Virus record (IMG/VR): IMGVR_UViG_2778261643_000010
DNA length: 24,518 nucleotides
Source: a virus
Lineage: Duplodnaviria > Heunggongvirae > Uroviricota > Caudoviricetes
Strand: one strand, 5' to 3'
Below, one piece after another: positions 10,591 through 18,022 of this stretch (positions are counted from its first letter, which is position 1; each line of letters begins with the position of its first letter). The notes beneath the pieces were generated by a model. It had not been told where the DNA came from and ran no database searches. It was given only the letters and a program-made list of their open reading frames with translations. The position numbers were made by a program, and so were the translations under genes.

Positions 10591-13500
10591 CTATATTTTT
10601 CCGCCTACGCCTTTAAACTTCTCAATAAACGAGACGATTTTCTGGAAAACTGCCTGTTTTTTCGTTTTATATTGCGGATTCAACGGACTAAGTTTTGGTA
10701 ATGTTTCGTTTAATTCTGTGCCATTTTCGGTGGCGTATTCGCGTTTTAAAGACGTGCGAATATAGCGTTTTGCTGCTTCTTCATTGAGGTTTTCTTCTTT
10801 TATCAATGCTTCTGCTTCACGTTGCTGTTCGCGTTGAGCAAACGTAAAGAATGCCTCAATGATACTGGCTTTGTCTGGTAAATCATCCAGGTTCGTTTGC
10901 TGAATAAAATCGACCACCAGGCCCTCTTTCGCCCGGTTTCCCAGGCTTGAACGAATTAAGCGTTTGACCTCTTCGATCATTTCGCCCTTGCCTTTATTTT
11001 GTCTGTTGTGTTCGAAAATCAGTCCAAGGATATAATCCAGGTTTATTTCCTGAGACTTCAGCAAATCGACCTCAAAAACTACATCATCCCAGTCAGTGGT
11101 TGATTTCTCTTTTTTCTCAGCTTCTTTCTCACGGCGCTGCCAGTCGCGAATATCGTTATAGGCAGAACGATAATCCTGAATCTTGCGATCAGCAGGGAGA
11201 CGAATTGTTTGCAATTCAGCGAACTTTTCATCATCCACATAATGTTCTGCTTTGAATTTTTCTACCGCAACAGGATCGCTAAGATCGATTTGTTGCAGGG
11301 CTTTTAGCGTGGCAAATTCATCATAGTTTTGCAGGATGTTCTCGGCACGCAGGTATTCGCCAAACAGTTTAACGAAGTCTTTCTTCTCTTTTTCACTTTC
11401 AATACTGGTAGGGTCAGGGAACCGTTGTTCCAGTTCTGAAACTACTGTCATGAAGCCGCGTTTAGCTTCACCAGTGGCAGCATCAGTAAAGCCTTCCATA
11501 TACTCTGCATAACTCTTTTCTAAAACCACATTTTTGGTATTTTTGTCACCAAACAGCGTTATGGCATCAATGGTTGAGCGTTCCAGATCCCGGAACGTGA
11601 CGATATTACCGAAGGTTTTAGTCGCGTCATAAATGCGGTTGGTGCGGGAGAATGCCTGCATCAGGCCGTGAAAACGCAAGTTTTTATCGACGAATAGCGT
11701 GTTCAATGTTGGAGCGTCGAAGCCGGTTAAAAACATCCCAACGACAATTAACAGATCGATATCCTGATTTTTAACCCGTTGGGCTAAATCACGATAGTAG
11801 TTCTGAAAACCGTTACTGTCGGTACTGAAGTTAGTTTTAAAATAGCTGTTATATTCACGAATTGCAGCGTCGAGAAACTCTTTAGCACTGCTGTCCATTG
11901 CGCTGGTATCAAAAGTTTCATCGGAAATTTCACCAATGGCATTTTGTTCTTCATTAGCGGCAAAGGAGAAGATTGTCGCAACACGTAGTGGTTTATAGGT
12001 AGCAGATTTATAAGCGGCTTCCTCTTGTAACCGTTTAAACGTCGCGTAATAGGCTTTCGCGGCATCCACGCTGCTCACTGCCAGCATGGCATTAAAACCT
12101 TTGGAGCCAGGGAAAGTACGGTGGGTTTTCTGGCGGAAGTTATTCAGGATATATTGCGTAATTTCCTGAATACGCATGGGATGAAGGAACGCCTGCTGAT
12201 TTTCAGCCGCACTCAGTTTTTTCTCGTCAGTTTCTGTCTCTAAAGACTTAAACTGTGGCCGCACATCGTTGTAGTCCACCTTGAATTTAAGCACTTTTTC
12301 ATCACGAATCGCATCGGTAATAACATATGAATGCAATTCACGGCCAAATACGCTGGCGGTCGTTTCTGAGCCTAAGGCGTTTTCCGGGAAAATAGGTGTG
12401 CCGGTAAAACCAAACTGATAATAGCGTTTGAATTTCTTCTTCAGGTTTTTCTGTGCTTCTCCAAACTGGCTGCGGTGACATTCATCAAATATAAACACCA
12501 CTTGCTGATTGTATACAGGCAGGTCGCTTTCTGCTTTCATCAGGTTATTAAGTTTCTGAATAGTGGTGACGATAATTTTGTTATCGTCCTTATCCAGATT
12601 TCGTTTAAGACCTGCGGTATTTTCCGAGCCGTTGACGCTGTCTGGCGAAAAACGCTGATATTCCTTCATGGTCTGGTAATCGAGGTCTTTCCTGTCGACC
12701 ACAAAGAAAACTTTATCAATAAAGTCCAGTTCTGTTGCCAGACGCGCGGCTTTAAAGCTGGTCAGGGTTTTACCGGAACCCGTGGTGTGCCAGATATACC
12801 CACCGCTTTCCGGTTTTGACCAGTTCTTCGCTGTAAAGGAGCTCTTAATTTTCCACAGAATGCGCTCGGTGGCGGCAATCTGGTACGGTCGCATCACCAG
12901 TAGCGTCTGACTACTGTCAAAAACGCTGTAGTTCACCAGAACATTCAGCAGAGTATGTTTCTGGAAAAAGGTAGCGGTAAAATCTTTGAGGTCTTTAATC
13001 AGCGTGTTGTCTGATTTCGCCCAGTTCATGGTGAAGTCAAAACTATTTTTATCGCGCTTTGTGGTGTTGGCAAAGTAACGGGTATCGGTGCCGTTAGAAA
13101 TGACAAACAGTTGCAGATACTTAAACAGGGAATTTTCGCTGTTAAAACTCTCTTTACTGTAACGATGTATCTGGTTGAAAGCCTCACGAATCGCCACGCC
13201 GCGCTTTTTCAGTTCGATTTGCACCAGAGGCAAGCCATTAACCAGGATAGTTACGTCATAACGGTTAGCGTGAGAACCTGCCTGTTCAAACTGCTGGATA
13301 ATCTGCACTTTGTTGCGCATGAGATTCTTTTTATCTATCAGATAGATGTTCTCAAGACGCCCGTCGTCAAAAATAAAGTCGCAAATATAGTCGATATGGA
13401 TTTTACGGGTCTTATCCAGAATGCCATCGCTCGGGTTGTCCAGATACTGCTCCGTGAAACGCCGCCACTCGCTGTCATTAAACACCACACCATTGAGGCT

Positions 13501-13707
13501 CTGAAGCTGTTCCCGAACATTGGACAGCATAGCCGACTGAGATTTTACGGATATAAATTCATAGCCCTGATTCCGCAGGTCCTGAATCAGTTCACGTTCC
13601 AGGTCCGATTCGCTCTGGTAGCTGTCGCCTGTTGGCTCAGCTTTGATGTACTTATCAAGGACGATAAAGTTATTGGATTCAGCAATAGTGTGTGTCTGAT
13701 GAGTCAT
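10591..13707 (-). CDS. hsdR: Type I restriction enzyme R subunit (HsdR), EcoR124-family (Type IC)
   Basis: Walker A motif [11 protein letters not shown] and DEAD-like [10 protein letters not shown] are present. The ORF track begins at 13767, but ATG 13707 ([11 protein letters not shown]) has an AAGGA ribosome-binding site and gives about 1038 aa, the length I recall for EcoR124I HsdR. Confidence 0.9.
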
Positions 13708-13828
13708 AGCGCATCCTTTGTGCCGTCTGGCAAGGGCCGGAAGGGAGTTAAGGGTGACTTCCGGCACGTAAAAAATAGTCTATATACAGACCGGATGTTA
13801 AGGTGGTCCGGTCGGTAGCAATGGTCAA

Positions 13829-15085
13829 TTAATTACTGACAGTTTCAGGTTTCGGGAAACTGAACAGTAAGTCACGATAGTACTCGTATTGTTTCTGGCG
13901 CAACTCGATTTCACGCGGGAGACCTTCGGTGATGGAGTTGGTCAGGGTGTCGAATTTATCGAGCAGAGCAGATATTCGCTCTTGTTTCTGTTTATCAGGC
14001 AATGGCACTGGTAATGTTTTTATAATATCTGCATTCAAGTTACTGACCGACCCGCTATTGATTTTACTTTCCCAATAATTTTTCACCTTTTTTGATGAAA
14101 GATAGTGATACAGATAATCAGCATTTAATTTTTCACCAAAATTGCTGATTGATGCCCATCCATCATGGATAGCTCCGGTTATCCTTAAAATATATGGTCT
14201 GCCAAAGCTCATAGAGTTAGAAATGACGAAATCACCGGGGTTCAAGATTCGCGATTTTTGGGCACCCTCTGCAGTTATTTTTTGTAAGGTTTTGTCAATG
14301 TATTTAGAGCCGGGGATAGTATCTCCGATTTTAATCCATGGGATACCATTTCCTTGTTCAGTAAGATAATTAACAATTGGCCTGGGGGATGCCCCACGTT
14401 GTATTTTGGCTACTTCTCCCAATGCCTTCCACTCAACCTCACCCTCTTTAAAACTCAGCAACTGGTCGCGATAGTAGTTGTACTGTTTTTTACGCATGTT
14501 AAGCTCAGCGGTAAGCTCAGCGGTAAGTGCAGTAAATTTGTCCAGAATCCGAACGATTTCAGACTGGATGGCGAGGGATTTTTCCGGATTATCCGGGCAG
14601 GGAATTGGGATGAGTAGTTTTGACATCAATGCATTTGAGCTTAGATTCGGTTGTGCTCCGCCCCCGGCGAGGATATAAATAGTCTCTGTATTTAACAATA
14701 AAAAATGGTATAAATAATTATTGTTTAGAATATTTTCTTTGGGTATGAATTTTCCAACCCGTTGGTTAAGATAACATTTTGTTCCTTTTTTATAAATTCC
14801 CACTTTTCCTGTAGTGGCACCTGACATTGCAATCAATATATTTCCCATAGATACCTCAAAGGAGGATAAATCTTCCTTGTAATCATTTAGTGAAAAGTAT
14901 TTCACCTCATCTAAGTCAACATTAAATCCATCTATATTTGTGATTCTAACTATCGGTAACCCAGTTTCTTTAAATAAGCTGCTTTTAAATGCAAATCCAT
15001 TTTTAAAATCACAAACATCCTTCAAGGGTTTCCACTCAACCTCAACCCCATCCAGCAATTTTTCCAGATAACTCAACTCGCTCAT
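13829..15085 (-). CDS. hsdS: Type I R-M specificity subunit (HsdS) with two target-recognition domains and a central TAEL-repeat region
   Basis: It has the conserved central block [54 protein letters not shown] and a conserved C-terminal block. The start overlaps the hsdM stop (ATGA). Confidence 0.9.
14501..14536. repeat. Two perfect 12-bp tandem repeats (AAGCTCAGCGGT) plus a degenerate third unit, encoding LTAEL-TAEL in hsdS
   Basis: Direct reading of 14501-14512 and 14513-14524, then the diverged unit AAGTGCAGTAAA. Confidence 0.85.
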
Positions 15086-16638
15086 TTCTGCACCTCGCAG
15101 CCTTCAATTTCAGCCACAATCGCATCAATATCTTTACGCAACTGGTCGATTTTGCTGACCGTGATTTTCAGCTCTGCATTCAACTCAGCGATATCGATAA
15201 TTTCGCGAGTATCTTTCGCTTCAACATAGCTGCTCACCGACAGGTTATAGTCATTAGCAACAACGGTCTCAAACGCGACTGATTTCGCCAGATGAGCAAC
15301 ATCTTCCTTGCTGGCAAATACCTGCATAATCTGTTCGATATGGGCATCGGTCAGGATATTGTTGTTGGTCTCTTTTTTGAATAGTTCGCTGGCGTCAATA
15401 AACTGAACTTTTGTATCTGTTTTATGTTTAGACAACACCAGAATGTTTACGGCAATGGTGGTGCCAAAGAACAGGTTCGGTGCCAGTGAAATCACGGTTT
15501 CGACATAGTTATTATCAACCAGATACTGACGGATTTTCTGCTCCGCGCCGCCACGGTAAAAAATACCCGGGAAGCAAACAATCGCAGCACGACCTTTGGC
15601 AGAAAGATAGTTCAGCGCATGTAGTACAAAGGCGAAGTCAGCTTTTGATTTGGGGGCCAGAACGCCAGCCGGGGCAAAACGTTCATCGTTAATCAGCGTC
15701 GGGTCATCGCTGCCAATCCATTTCACCGAATACGGCGGGTTAGAAACGATGGCATCAAACGGTTTTTCATCTCTGAAGTGTGGTTCAGTCAGCGTATTGC
15801 CCAGCTTGATATCAAACTTGTCGTAGTTGATGTTGTGCAAAAACATGTTCATACGCGCCAGGTTATAGGTCGTATGGTTGATTTCCTGACCAAAAAAACC
15901 TTCTTCGATGATATGGTCATCAAACTGTTTTTTAGCCTGCAACAACAGCGAACCGGAGCCTGCTGCCGGGTCGTAGATTTTGTTAACGTGGGTCTGCCCG
16001 TGCATAGCCAGTTGTGCAATCAGCTTAGAGACGTGCTGCGGTGTAAAGAACTCGCCGCCGGACTTACCGGCATTCGCGGCATAGTTAGAAATCAGGAACT
16101 CATAGGCGTCACCGAACAGATCAATCTGATGTTCGGTGAAGTCACCAAGTTTTAACCCTTCAACCCCTTTCAGAACCGCAGCCAGGCGGGCATTTTTATC
16201 TTTAACGGTGTTACCCAGGCGGTTACTGGTGGTATCGAAATCAGCAAACAAACCTTTGATGTCTGCTTCTGAAGGGTAGCCGTAAGCAGAACTTTCGATA
16301 GCAACGAAGATACTGTTTAAATCTGCATTCAGTCTGTCATTGGTATTTGCTTTCGCAGCTACGTTGCAGAAAAGCTGGCTTGGGTAGATGAAGTAGCCTT
16401 TGGTTTTGATGGCATCGTCTTTAATGTCATCAGTAATTACGCTGTCATCCAGTGCTGCATAACAGATGCTGTCATCATCGGCTTCCATATAGCTGGAAAA
16501 ATTTTCGCTGATAAAACGATAAAAAAGCGCGCCCAGAACGTACTGCTTAAAATCCCATCCATCGACTGAACCCCTGACATCGTTAGCAATTTGCCAGATC
16601 TGGCGATGAAGTTCTGCACGTTGTTGAATACTTGTCAT
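15082..16638 (-). CDS. hsdM: Type I R-M N6-adenine DNA methyltransferase (HsdM)
   Basis: Contains the AdoMet-binding motif [11 protein letters not shown] and the catalytic motif VSNPPYS. Confidence 0.9.
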
Positions 16639-16768
16639 TTTCTTCCACTTATTTCAGGCTTAAGTAATTGGCGGTGATTCTACAGCAACTTTGATGCTTT
16701 AGCAGTTCGGACATTAGGCAACGAATGACCTAATTAGAGCTTTTTGGAAAAGCGGTATTGTCGGTGCG

Positions 16769-16993
16769 ATGATAGCTATGTTTGGGTTCGCGATGGTGCA
16801 ATACAATGACGGTGAAAAGGTAAGCATCCAGTCTGATGGCTGGTATGGGCTGGATAGCCTGCAAAAAACCGCAGATAAAGCCTGTCAGCAATATGGAAAG
16901 TCTAAAGCCGTATATCAGCATAGCGCGAACGCTAATCCACATCTCGCGCCCGGCACGGGCGTTCAGAACACTATTTGGAAATGCGAACCATAA
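16769..16993 (+). CDS. Hypothetical small protein (74 aa)
   Basis: ORF only; no clear ribosome-binding site. It overlaps an antisense ORF (16730-16942), so the coding status is uncertain. Confidence 0.25.
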   Translation: MIAMFGFAMVQYNDGEKVSIQSDGWYGLDSLQKTADKACQQYGKSKAVYQHSANANPHLAPGTGVQNTIWKCEP

Positions 16994-17176
16994 CGCAGGT
17001 TGGCTTTTTACATCTTGGGCCGAATACTGATTCCGCGCTAAGTTGTTTGTGCGGAAGTGACACTGTGGAGCTTAGAAATAGTAAATACTGGTGGGCAACA
17101 AATTGAGCCTTCACACGCTCACCAGCACACACAAAAAATGGTTAAACAGCAAGGGAATTAATATCTCAGCGCGACA

Positions 17177-17314
17177 TTAAATAAGCCAGCGCACGCCTCT
17201 GTTTATCACTGACTTGAAAAACCATATCAGAACCACGATGAAGACAATCGCCAGCACTTGGCTAAGAACAGGCGCATTTAAAAATGCACTTAGAAACTGA
17301 AAAAATACAATCAT
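17177..17314 (-). CDS. Candidate small membrane protein (45 aa, MIVFFQFLSAFLNAPVLSQVLAIVFIVVLIWFFKSVINRGVRWLI)
   Basis: Has GAGGA eight nt upstream of the ATG and is strongly hydrophobic. It lies in an otherwise gene-poor spacer. Confidence 0.3.
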   Translation of the reverse strand: MIVFFQFLSAFLNAPVLSQVLAIVFIVVLIWFFKSVINRGVRWLI

Positions 17315-17782
17315 CAGGGTAATCCTCGTCAAATGTAAAGCTGTGTGCTCTCACGTTGACGTAGAAACCCAACCTCTATATAGTTGGATTCGGTGAAAGA
17401 AAGTCGTTAACGTGAACTTACGGCACATGTTTTCGGTATAAAAATCAGGGAACTGTGAATTCCTTGATGTAGTTGGGGCCTGTAATGCAGGCCCTATCTA
17501 TTAATGTCATGATTACATCTCAAATTTTCTCCTTATCATTATTATTTAATAAAATTCAATTAATAAAATATCCATTTCCTGTGTGTGCAAACACAGTATG
17601 AGGAAAATGGCCTCGTTGCAAGTGCATAACTTTGTGGATAACTCTGAAGGCGAATTTACATTTCGGCGCACCGCAAGCCAGATAAGCTGTGCGCAAAAAG
17701 CAATGGGGTGAGAAAAAAACTTTGAAGATATTGCGGCGACTAAATAATAGCCGTTATTCAATTATTCTGGATGGGATTTAAT

Positions 17783-18022
17783 ATGAACGAATGGAACATA
17801 GCAGCCAAAAGCCAGGAAGAAAGGAATAAAGTTAACGTTGACCTGGCTGCCAGGGGGGTTGCCTACAAAGAGCGATTGAACATACCTGTCATAGCTGAAC
17901 AGGTAGCCCGCGAGCAACCAGAGAATCTGCGCACCTATTTCATGGAACGTCTACGGCACTACCGGCAGTTAAGCCTCCAGTTGCCAAAAGGGAACGATCC
18001 GGCATATCAGAAAACAGAATAG
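17783..18022 (+). CDS. hot: Homolog of DNA polymerase III theta subunit (HolE-like; P1 Hot-like)
   Basis: [42 protein letters not shown] closely parallels E. coli theta as I remember it. The annotated ORF starts at 17771; ATG 17783 is preferred. Confidence 0.75.

Follow-up and report, generated by a model that had tools for sequence, protein, structure and literature searches.

In the hok/sok system of plasmid R1, a plasmid-borne gene for a small membrane peptide is held by an antisense RNA, which is made from a strong promoter and is directed against the leader and not against the start codon of the toxin. In the ldrD/rdlD system of Escherichia coli K-12 (and in ldrA–C/rdlA–C), the gene for a small hydrophobic peptide follows a long 5' leader, and a small RNA (sRNA) starts on the opposite strand, 49 nt upstream of the peptide ATG in rdlD. 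We describe here a locus that may be organized along the same lines. It lies in the spacer before hot (positions 16994–17770) of a P1-like phage-plasmid, represented by a stretch of 24,518 nt (24.5 kb; IMG/VR record IMGVR_UViG_2778261643_000010), to which we refer as the window. A self-contained module at 17075–17720 would consist of three parts: a minus-strand gene for a membrane peptide of 45 residues with one span, a promoter copied from nrdA of the host together with two DnaA boxes, and a plus-strand sigma-70 promoter within the leader for a non-coding RNA. We tentatively read it as an antisense-controlled small membrane peptide of the type I toxin-antitoxin (TA) kind.

As in the ldr systems, the peptide gene is small and hydrophobic and would follow a long leader, and as in hok/sok, the antisense RNA is proposed to meet this leader. 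The opposite-strand RNA would start ~76 nt upstream of the ATG. The peptide (45 aa versus 35 in Ldr) and the candidate sRNA (~115 nt versus 64–68 nt for Rdl) are both longer, and the module is on a phage-plasmid with a copy of the nrdA promoter, whereas ldr/rdl forms a chromosomal long direct repeat. In being hydrophobic, shorter than 60 aa and with one transmembrane span, the peptide resembles those of type I systems. A likeness to Ldr was seen at the level of a motif (AF..L[DN]APV[IL].. versus AFWHDLAAPVIAGILA), and BLASTP gave an E-value of 0.002, only within a database of four sequences.

A PXXXG motif opens the transmembrane helix in members of the Fst/Ldr superfamily (PMC7472228). At this place all lineages of the module have PV[LIV]SQ, in which the proline is invariant and glutamine replaces glycine. 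Profile comparison by hhalign gave a probability of 9% against Ldr, Pfam Ldr did not match at E-values up to 1, and Rfam rdlD had no match to the module. Membership in the Ldr/Fst family was rejected on the motif, the hhalign result and the lack of a Pfam match. With hok/sok there was no sequence or covariance-model similarity, and the fold-back and processing elements of the hok mRNA were not identified in the module. A short upstream frame with a strong Shine–Dalgarno (SD) sequence may correspond to mok but, unlike mok, is not conserved as a frame. Hok/Gef and the other curated toxin and sRNA families gave no hidden Markov model (HMM) or covariance-model match in Pfam, NCBIfam, PHROGs and Rfam. 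Since no known family matched, the module is described as type I-like and not as a member of Ldr or Hok.

The peptide gene and its leader

Four lineages of the module were found in total, with pairwise identities of 67–83% over the module: A, the type of the present window; B, with P1 and P7/SJ46; C (L007–L010); and D (L100–L103), with a different neighbourhood, in which the module is flanked by theta and by an H-NS gene. A sequence-only reading of the window had pointed out a hydrophobic minus-strand open reading frame (ORF) of 45 aa with a GAGGA ribosome-binding site. This ORF (see the table) is present and is conserved in all four lineages. The frame was open, with an identical start, in 32 of 32 unique sequences, and it is the only stop-free one of the six frames. 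Its length is 45 codons in lineages A–C and 42 in D, in which a 20-nt deletion replaces the tail. This was the sole indel in the ORF among the lineages, whereas the neighbouring DNA shows several. The AGGA core and the ATG are invariant, and the 8–9 nt between them vary. The 13-nt block just upstream is invariant in A, B and C and differs by one base in D.

The product, MIVFFQFLSAFLNAPVLSQVLAIVFIVVLIWFFKSVINRGVRWLI, has a GRAVY value of 1.72, a single 19-residue hydrophobic span (residues 15–33), a basic tail and a motif, FL.AP, that is invariant across the lineages. The ratio of nonsynonymous to synonymous changes (dN/dS; NG86) was 0.28–0.45 for most lineage pairs, a test that was supportive, not decisive. 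Taken with the open frame, we consider it likely that the ORF is a real gene. It is annotated as a hypothetical protein by PGAP in P1-type plasmids (WP_000123562.1) and as J46_0085 in SJ46, and is unannotated in the P1 RefSeq record. Among rare natural variants (P0003, P0004, P0005 and P0006), the C-termini were frameshifted or replaced after residue 30–37, but the N-terminus and the beginning of the membrane span were unaffected. Such alleles may have been inactivated; alternatively, the tail may not be needed. In lineage D, a gene caller had merged leader and peptide into an ORF of 106 aa.

The same DNA carries upfM, upfN and upfO in the P1 annotation (NC_005856), on the strand opposite to the conserved gene of the module. 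In lineage A, upfM has no start and upfN is interrupted; in C, upfM is truncated and upfN is absent. As their frames are not conserved and are broken by indels, both were rejected as genes. The upfO of P1 corresponds to the ypaB frame of E. coli and is no more than a ypaB-like frame across the DnaA boxes; it appears conserved because the DnaA boxes and the −35 element lie on the other strand. P1's predicted promoters P1upfM and P2upfM were not conserved in lineage A, according to a visual inspection of the alignments. The present annotation of this region in P1 is probably wrong.

Upstream of the peptide gene, the minus strand carries DNA related to the region upstream of E. coli nrdA. This upstream homology was found in all 5426 complete E. 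coli genomes searched, and the promoter is oriented leftward, toward the peptide gene. The DnaA boxes abutting TTGCAA are invariant in the four lineages. An 'nrdA-like promoter' was already annotated here in GenBank M95666 by Lehnherr and co-workers. The order of the two DnaA boxes, the −35 TTGCAA and the spacer, and their orientation to the downstream gene, are those of the E. coli nrdAB promoter (ypaB). The likeness does not extend to the transcribed leader or to the gene that follows, neither of which is related to nrdA. With two boxes directly upstream of the −35 and homology to nrdA, it is a predicted DnaA-regulated promoter of the nrdA type. Whether or not it drives the 45-codon ORF we consider evenly balanced. 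A NrdR-box-like palindrome (ACAC..GTGT type) was not seen in the module by eye, no formal scan having been made.

Transcription would start at ~17586, which would give a leader of ~270 nt. The putative leader begins in AT-rich DNA, which the sequence-only reading had placed at 17520–17580 and which was measured over 17500–17599. Conservation is lowest here: 5% of the columns are invariant, and there is an indel of 12–19 nt. A start-stop mini-ORF in it, just past the predicted 3' end of the antisense RNA, reads ATG-TAA in lineages A and D and GTG-TAA in C, and is a 3-codon ORF in B. We speculate that it could serve as a ribosome-loading or mok-like element. A 21-codon ORF (17445–17510, minus strand) was rejected as a conserved leader peptide, as it has no start codon in C and no stop in D.

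The long-range inverted repeat farther down the leader forms a stem of 11–13 bp (17351–17361 with 17405–17415), in which one A-T pair has been exchanged for T-A in lineage D, a compensatory double change. The inner hairpin keeps 9 of 9 pairs on the minus strand versus 7 of 9 on the plus strand, and D carries further changes that stay paired on the minus strand only. We read the repeat as a structure of the minus-strand RNA leader, or alternatively as a symmetric DNA site. Beyond the gene, a putative hairpin and U-rich run could end the peptide mRNA. Lineages A, C and D all retain the stem; in C, a T-A pair has become C-G through changes on both sides. The z-score of this hairpin is weak (−1.8).

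The plus-strand promoter and the stem-loops

The best promoter match of the region is on the plus strand, and both of its hexamers are invariant in all four lineages. It is the 'PupfN' of P1. It lies in the most conserved block of the spacer, 17350–17437, in which 90% of the columns are invariant among A, B and C, compared with 25–70% in the flanks. The DNA downstream of this promoter tolerates 1-nt indels. From these indels and the broken frames of upfM and upfN, the downstream region is non-coding.

Three stem-loops (SL1–SL3) follow. The GC-rich hairpin that had been reported from the sequence near 17477–17497 is SL3, at 17475–17495, with the arms GGGCCTG (17476–17482) and CAGGCCC (17488–17494) around TAATG; it can be extended to 17469–17503. 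On the plus strand, this hairpin had a folding energy of −20.8 kcal/mol with a z-score of −5.0, and none of 200 shuffled sequences was as good; on the minus strand, the energy was −14.4 kcal/mol. For the whole candidate RNA, the minimum free energy was −37.9 kcal/mol (z −3.5) on the plus strand versus −24.5 (z −2.2) on the minus strand.

Comparison of the lineages gave a similar strand preference. Two pairs of SL3 showed compensatory double changes. In SL2 and SL3 together, 3 pairs had changed on both sides, against 0.7 in shuffles (0 of 500 shuffles reached 3), and slid controls gave 0–1 such pairs. With G-U pairs allowed, all 12–13 of the 12–13 pairs of SL1–SL3 are kept on the plus strand, but only 9–10 on the minus strand. 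The stem-loops thus appear to behave like selected RNA structure, and the suggestion of regulatory RNAs in this spacer was a good one. A structured RNA is probably made from the plus strand. A covariance-model search, which had been proposed as a check, returned nothing relevant from Rfam at E-values up to 10.

After SL3, lineages A, B and D have UAUCUAUU, whereas C has UAUCUUUU; the tail in C was also noted as TATCTTTT, which was counted for an antisense RNA. SL3 is a weak candidate for an intrinsic terminator of the plus-strand RNA. The spacer lacks a C1 operator, so that nothing here predicts repression in the lysogen. Elsewhere in the window, five C1-operator-like sites were seen (4560, 8184, 8233, 10326 and 21476), with 2–3 mismatches to ATTGCTCTAATAAATTT, where 0.09 were expected by chance.

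Coordinates of the predicted elements of the module, followed by the surrounding features, in the 24.5-kb window
Feature	Position	Strand	Remarks
45-codon gene, single-pass hydrophobic peptide	17177–17314	−	ATG 17314–17312, TAA 17179–17177
Shine–Dalgarno GAGGA	17323–17327	−	8 nt upstream of ATG
13-nt block	17328–17340	−	CTTTACATTTGAC (minus strand), just upstream of SD
Long-range inverted repeat	17351–17415	−	TCACGTTGACG / CGTTAACGTGA; encloses hairpin 17365–17391 centred on TATATA
Predicted sigma-70 promoter	17356–17384	+	TTGACG-17-TATAGT, 10/12
Candidate antisense sRNA, ~115 nt	~17390–17505	+	Conserved 5' domain, SL1–SL3, then TATCTATT
SL1	17404–17436	+	In conserved 5' domain
SL2	17443–17469	+	RNAalifold
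SL3 (GC hairpin)	17471–17499	+	RNAalifold
AT-rich tract	17500–17599		23% GC; start of putative leader
SD AAGGAG with start-stop mini-ORF 10 nt later	17512–17533	−	In putative leader
nrdA-like promoter (predicted)	17593–17641	−	Two DnaA boxes, −35, −10; reads toward peptide gene
DnaA box TTATCCACA	17641–17633	−	Only perfect DnaA box in the window
DnaA box TTATGCACT	17629–17621	−	With TTATCCACA, abuts TTGCAA
−35 TTGCAA	17621–17616	−	Followed by 17-nt spacer
−10 TACTGT	17598–17593	−	nrdA homology ends here
nrdA homology, 115 bp	17603–17717	−	76–78% identical to nrdA upstream region (ypaB)
Putative terminator of peptide mRNA	17074–17125	−	Stem CTGGTGAGC...GCCCACCAG (17125–17088), then TATTTACTATTTCT
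Tail of alternative variable module	16994–17119		Module that ends with 74-aa ORF; absent from P1
Counterpart of P1 late promoter LPhot	17725–17748	+	−10 AATAAT (17743–17748) kept
hot	17771–18022		Pfam DNA_pol3_theta, E 3e-32; right of spacer
74-aa ORF	16769–16993	+	PHROG 7757 match; adjoins spacer on left
hsdM	15082–16638	−	Type I restriction-modification cassette
hsdS	13829–15085	−	Type I restriction-modification cassette
hsdR	10591–13767	−	Type I restriction-modification cassette
pap	9820–10326		Left of hsd cassette

Distribution and mosaic boundaries

The core of the module (17170–17520) was present in ~229 of ~578 pacA-type P1 plasmids in PLSDB (~40%). The module is an accessory one of P1-like phage-plasmids, the segment 17120–17770 is not a universal backbone, and this region has previously been described as hypervariable among these plasmids (PMC9603915). 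The case of a spacer that is backbone in all P1-like genomes, raised in the sequence-only reading, thus holds for P1, P7 and SJ46 but not for the P1-type plasmids at large. Lineages were sought by exact DNA patterns, back-translated peptide patterns, a word-index protein search and a full HMM search. The HMM search covered 1.84 billion representatives, the DNA-pattern scans covered viral, genome and metagenome collections, and the back-translated scans covered the genome and viral collections. In these collections there were no more distant relatives, only lineages A–D or chance 19-mer matches.

P7/SJ46-type elements keep the module yet have no hot gene, and lineage D keeps it in a non-syntenic setting without the P1 gene order. 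From these two cases, the module travels as a unit. In P7 (L005)- and SJ46 (L099)-type elements, the homology ends at ~17693; IS903 is nearby in P7, and SJ46 has an unannotated gap of ~860 bp. Beyond the theta and H-NS flanks of lineage D, genes with VRR_NUC and TsiV domains were seen.

The mosaic was mapped by megablast against phages and plasmids, and its boundaries by direct BLAST against hsd-free P1-like plasmids. By megablast, 17120 onward is common to P1, P7, SJ46 and ~200 plasmids at ~78–79% identity, and ~700 plasmids match only 16640–16743, the region upstream of hsdM. By direct BLAST, P1 homology spans 9700–10515 and 17120–18013, and the hsd cassette is limited to 10516–16734. This puts the right hsd junction (16734/16735) ahead of the 74-aa ORF, 260 bp to the left of the spacer, and a second mosaic junction, 17119/17120, lies inside the spacer at the onset of P1 homology. 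The sequence-only reading had supposed that the spacer could hold the insertion junction and had proposed alignment with P1 to find where backbone meets cargo. Homology to P1 does resume within the spacer, but the hsd cargo ends before it. From 16735 to 18013, the window is 98.4% identical to CP055025, an example of the hsd-free plasmids.

That reading had also taken the small hydrophobic ORFs for features of the island flanks. This was not borne out: the DNA from 17120 to 17770 is shared with P1, which has no hsd island, and the other ORF, 10377–10511, likewise lies in P1-homologous DNA. The latter (plus strand, 44 aa, MPQGAACIQSITGAENMNTAFKIIMAAIYFWLFSIIFGGIVAHG) lies across the island from the spacer, within the Op88/pmgT promoter region, and immediately follows the C1-operator-like site 10326–10342. 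PGAP annotates it as WP_001312275.1 in CP055025 (L003), and it is unannotated in P1.

The spacer has no long ORF, as had been stated; the longest are one TTG ORF of 71 aa and several of at most 51 aa. Its parts outside the module would be accounted for otherwise, 16994–17119 as the tail of the other variable module and 17725–17748 as the counterpart of the late promoter of hot. The former holds a hairpin (17031–17056) and the distal arm of the putative mRNA terminator. In the latter, the −22 element is AAGATATTG here versus AAGTTACTT in P1, a match of 6/9. The late-operator pattern AAGTNACTT was not enriched in the window. Beyond hot, the gene order is lxr-like genes, humD, phd-doc and pacAB. 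In pHXH-2 (L004, NZ_MH257954; 4421–6141), the chromosomal housekeeping genes apbC and metG come directly after humD.

The left hsd junction (10515/10516) coincides with the end of a P1 segment for which the P1 record remarks 96–98% identity to the sequences that follow the hsd loci of EcoDXXI and R124 downstream. The type IC loci EcoR124 and EcoDXXI are flanked by P1 DNA, and the cassette here meets the P1 segment at the same left end. This shared breakpoint suggests a recurrent point of recombination. Unlike the EcoR124/EcoDXXI type, the right junction here sits in a different variable module and not beside phd. The literature on type IC hsd loci concerns the cassette and not the spacer. In the hsd-free CP055025, the counterpart of the 74-aa ORF (L003, 3993–4259) is annotated with 88 aa, for which the equivalent in the window is 16727–16993. 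The hsd junction at 16735 deletes this longer start, so that the 74-aa gene is either altered at its N-terminus or starts at the internal ATG 16769.

Alternative readings and implications

The type I-like reading starts from the observed conservation, integrity of the ORF, promoter motifs, strand-specific covariation and nrdA homology. From these, it supposes that both RNAs are produced and interact and that the peptide may be toxic. Transcription from the nrdA-type promoter would run through the structured leader and the peptide gene to the hairpin at ~17088–17125. Opposed to it, 196 bp away, is the plus-strand promoter, and the peptide gene lies downstream of the weaker of the two convergent promoters. 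As they stand face to face at this distance, the small RNA would match the central part of the leader with full complementarity over ~115 nt, an overlap that depends on the inferred mRNA start at ~17586. SL3 would act as a weak intrinsic terminator to end the antisense RNA. An abundant antisense RNA would pair with the leader and keep the peptide off through cleavage of the duplex, blocked ribosome loading or promoter interference. Upon loss of the antisense RNA, or firing of the DnaA-controlled promoter, the peptide would be made. That the peptide is in fact a toxin is doubtful. Still further from being likely is a new type I TA family beside phd-doc, wired to DnaA and replication through a captured host nrdA promoter and gated by cis-antisense RNA. 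Such a family would be a second switch for addiction or abortive infection, its peptide being made upon, e.g., superinfection, replication stress or loss of the plasmid.

Several observations weigh against the type I-like reading. For the peptide, dN/dS was not far below 1 in two lineage pairs (0.69 for A-D and 0.80 for C-D), and the antisense frame sharing third positions gave similar values. Its C-terminus is replaced in lineage D and in the rare frameshift variants, Pfam, NCBIfam and PHROGs gave only sub-threshold unrelated matches, and the hhalign probability against Ldr was low. The −10 element (TACTGT) of the nrdA-like promoter is weak. For the RNA, the covariation counts come from four lineages only, i.e. 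one or two events each, and lineage D has a U-U mismatch in SL3 and a broken pair in SL1. The tail after SL3 is U-poor in A, B and D, a terminator (consensus) scan did not list SL3, and the Rfam matches were spurious and sub-threshold. No P1 transcriptome, sRNA, type I system or transcript map for this locus was found in the literature. Knock-down of P1 upfN and upfO by CRISPR interference gave no lytic-growth phenotype (PMC10695390), a result that is neutral for a function in maintenance.

The plus-strand promoter might instead be the vegetative (lysogenic) promoter of hot, with the conserved block and stem-loops as a leader or attenuator of ~380 nt in the hot mRNA and the peptide gene as an unrelated neighbour. 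It is directed at hot, the only documented promoter of which is the late LPhot; the U-poor tail after SL3 makes read-through toward hot plausible, and hot is beside the module in lineages A, B (P1), C and D. In P7/SJ46-type elements, however, the promoter and SL1–SL3 are intact, yet hot is lacking, and more than 1.5 kb of downstream DNA has no gene on the plus strand. The DNA from SL3 to hot is moreover the least conserved part and bears the convergent promoter, and we consider this account unlikely. To about the same degree we doubt that the peptide is a benign membrane protein under DnaA/nrdA-type regulation, with the stem-loops as cis structures of its leader and no antisense RNA. The minus strand does suit the long-range stem and inner hairpin better, SL2 and SL3 fold there as well (z −2.6 and −3.5), and the peptide is without a toxin family match. 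On the other hand, the G-U pairs of SL1–SL3 become A-C mismatches on the minus strand, and the chance presence of a sigma-70 promoter that matches at 10/12 positions, both hexamers being invariant, would be surprising.

A function at the level of DNA in an unexpressed module, with the ORF as a chance open frame, is less probable again. The module might then hold inverted repeats for protein binding, titrate DnaA beside a replication gene, or anchor recombination between swappable cargo modules. Symmetric changes in inverted repeats would also be expected for the site of a dimeric DNA-binding protein, mosaic breakpoints lie at both ends of the module (17120 and ~17693), and the dN/dS evidence is modest. 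Against this, the start codon, the SD core and the hydrophobic span are kept without stops at 67–83% DNA identity, and the ORF has suffered no indel but the deletion at its tail in D, where the neighbouring DNA has several. Strand-asymmetric G-U pairing is also not expected for DNA sites. Very improbable is an origin of the spacer as a junction left by insertion of the hsd island, with the small peptide genes as features of its flanks. A mosaic junction relative to P1 does lie at 17119/17120; the cassette, however, ends at 16734/16735, the DNA beyond it continues at 98.4% identity in an hsd-free plasmid, and P1 itself has the segment 17120–17770.

P1 is among the best-studied phages, and phage-plasmids of its kind have an important part in carrying resistance genes. 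If the type I-like reading is true, the annotation of upfM, upfN and upfO in this region of P1 is wrong, and an unannotated peptide gene and an sRNA join the map of P1. The locus would then be a clean natural example of antisense control by convergent promoters. If the peptide is not toxic, it would be a routine small membrane protein with a structured leader. If the reading holds, P1 would gain, beside phd-doc, a second maintenance or defence module, one that is controlled by RNA and has its promoter borrowed from the ribonucleotide reductase operon of the host.

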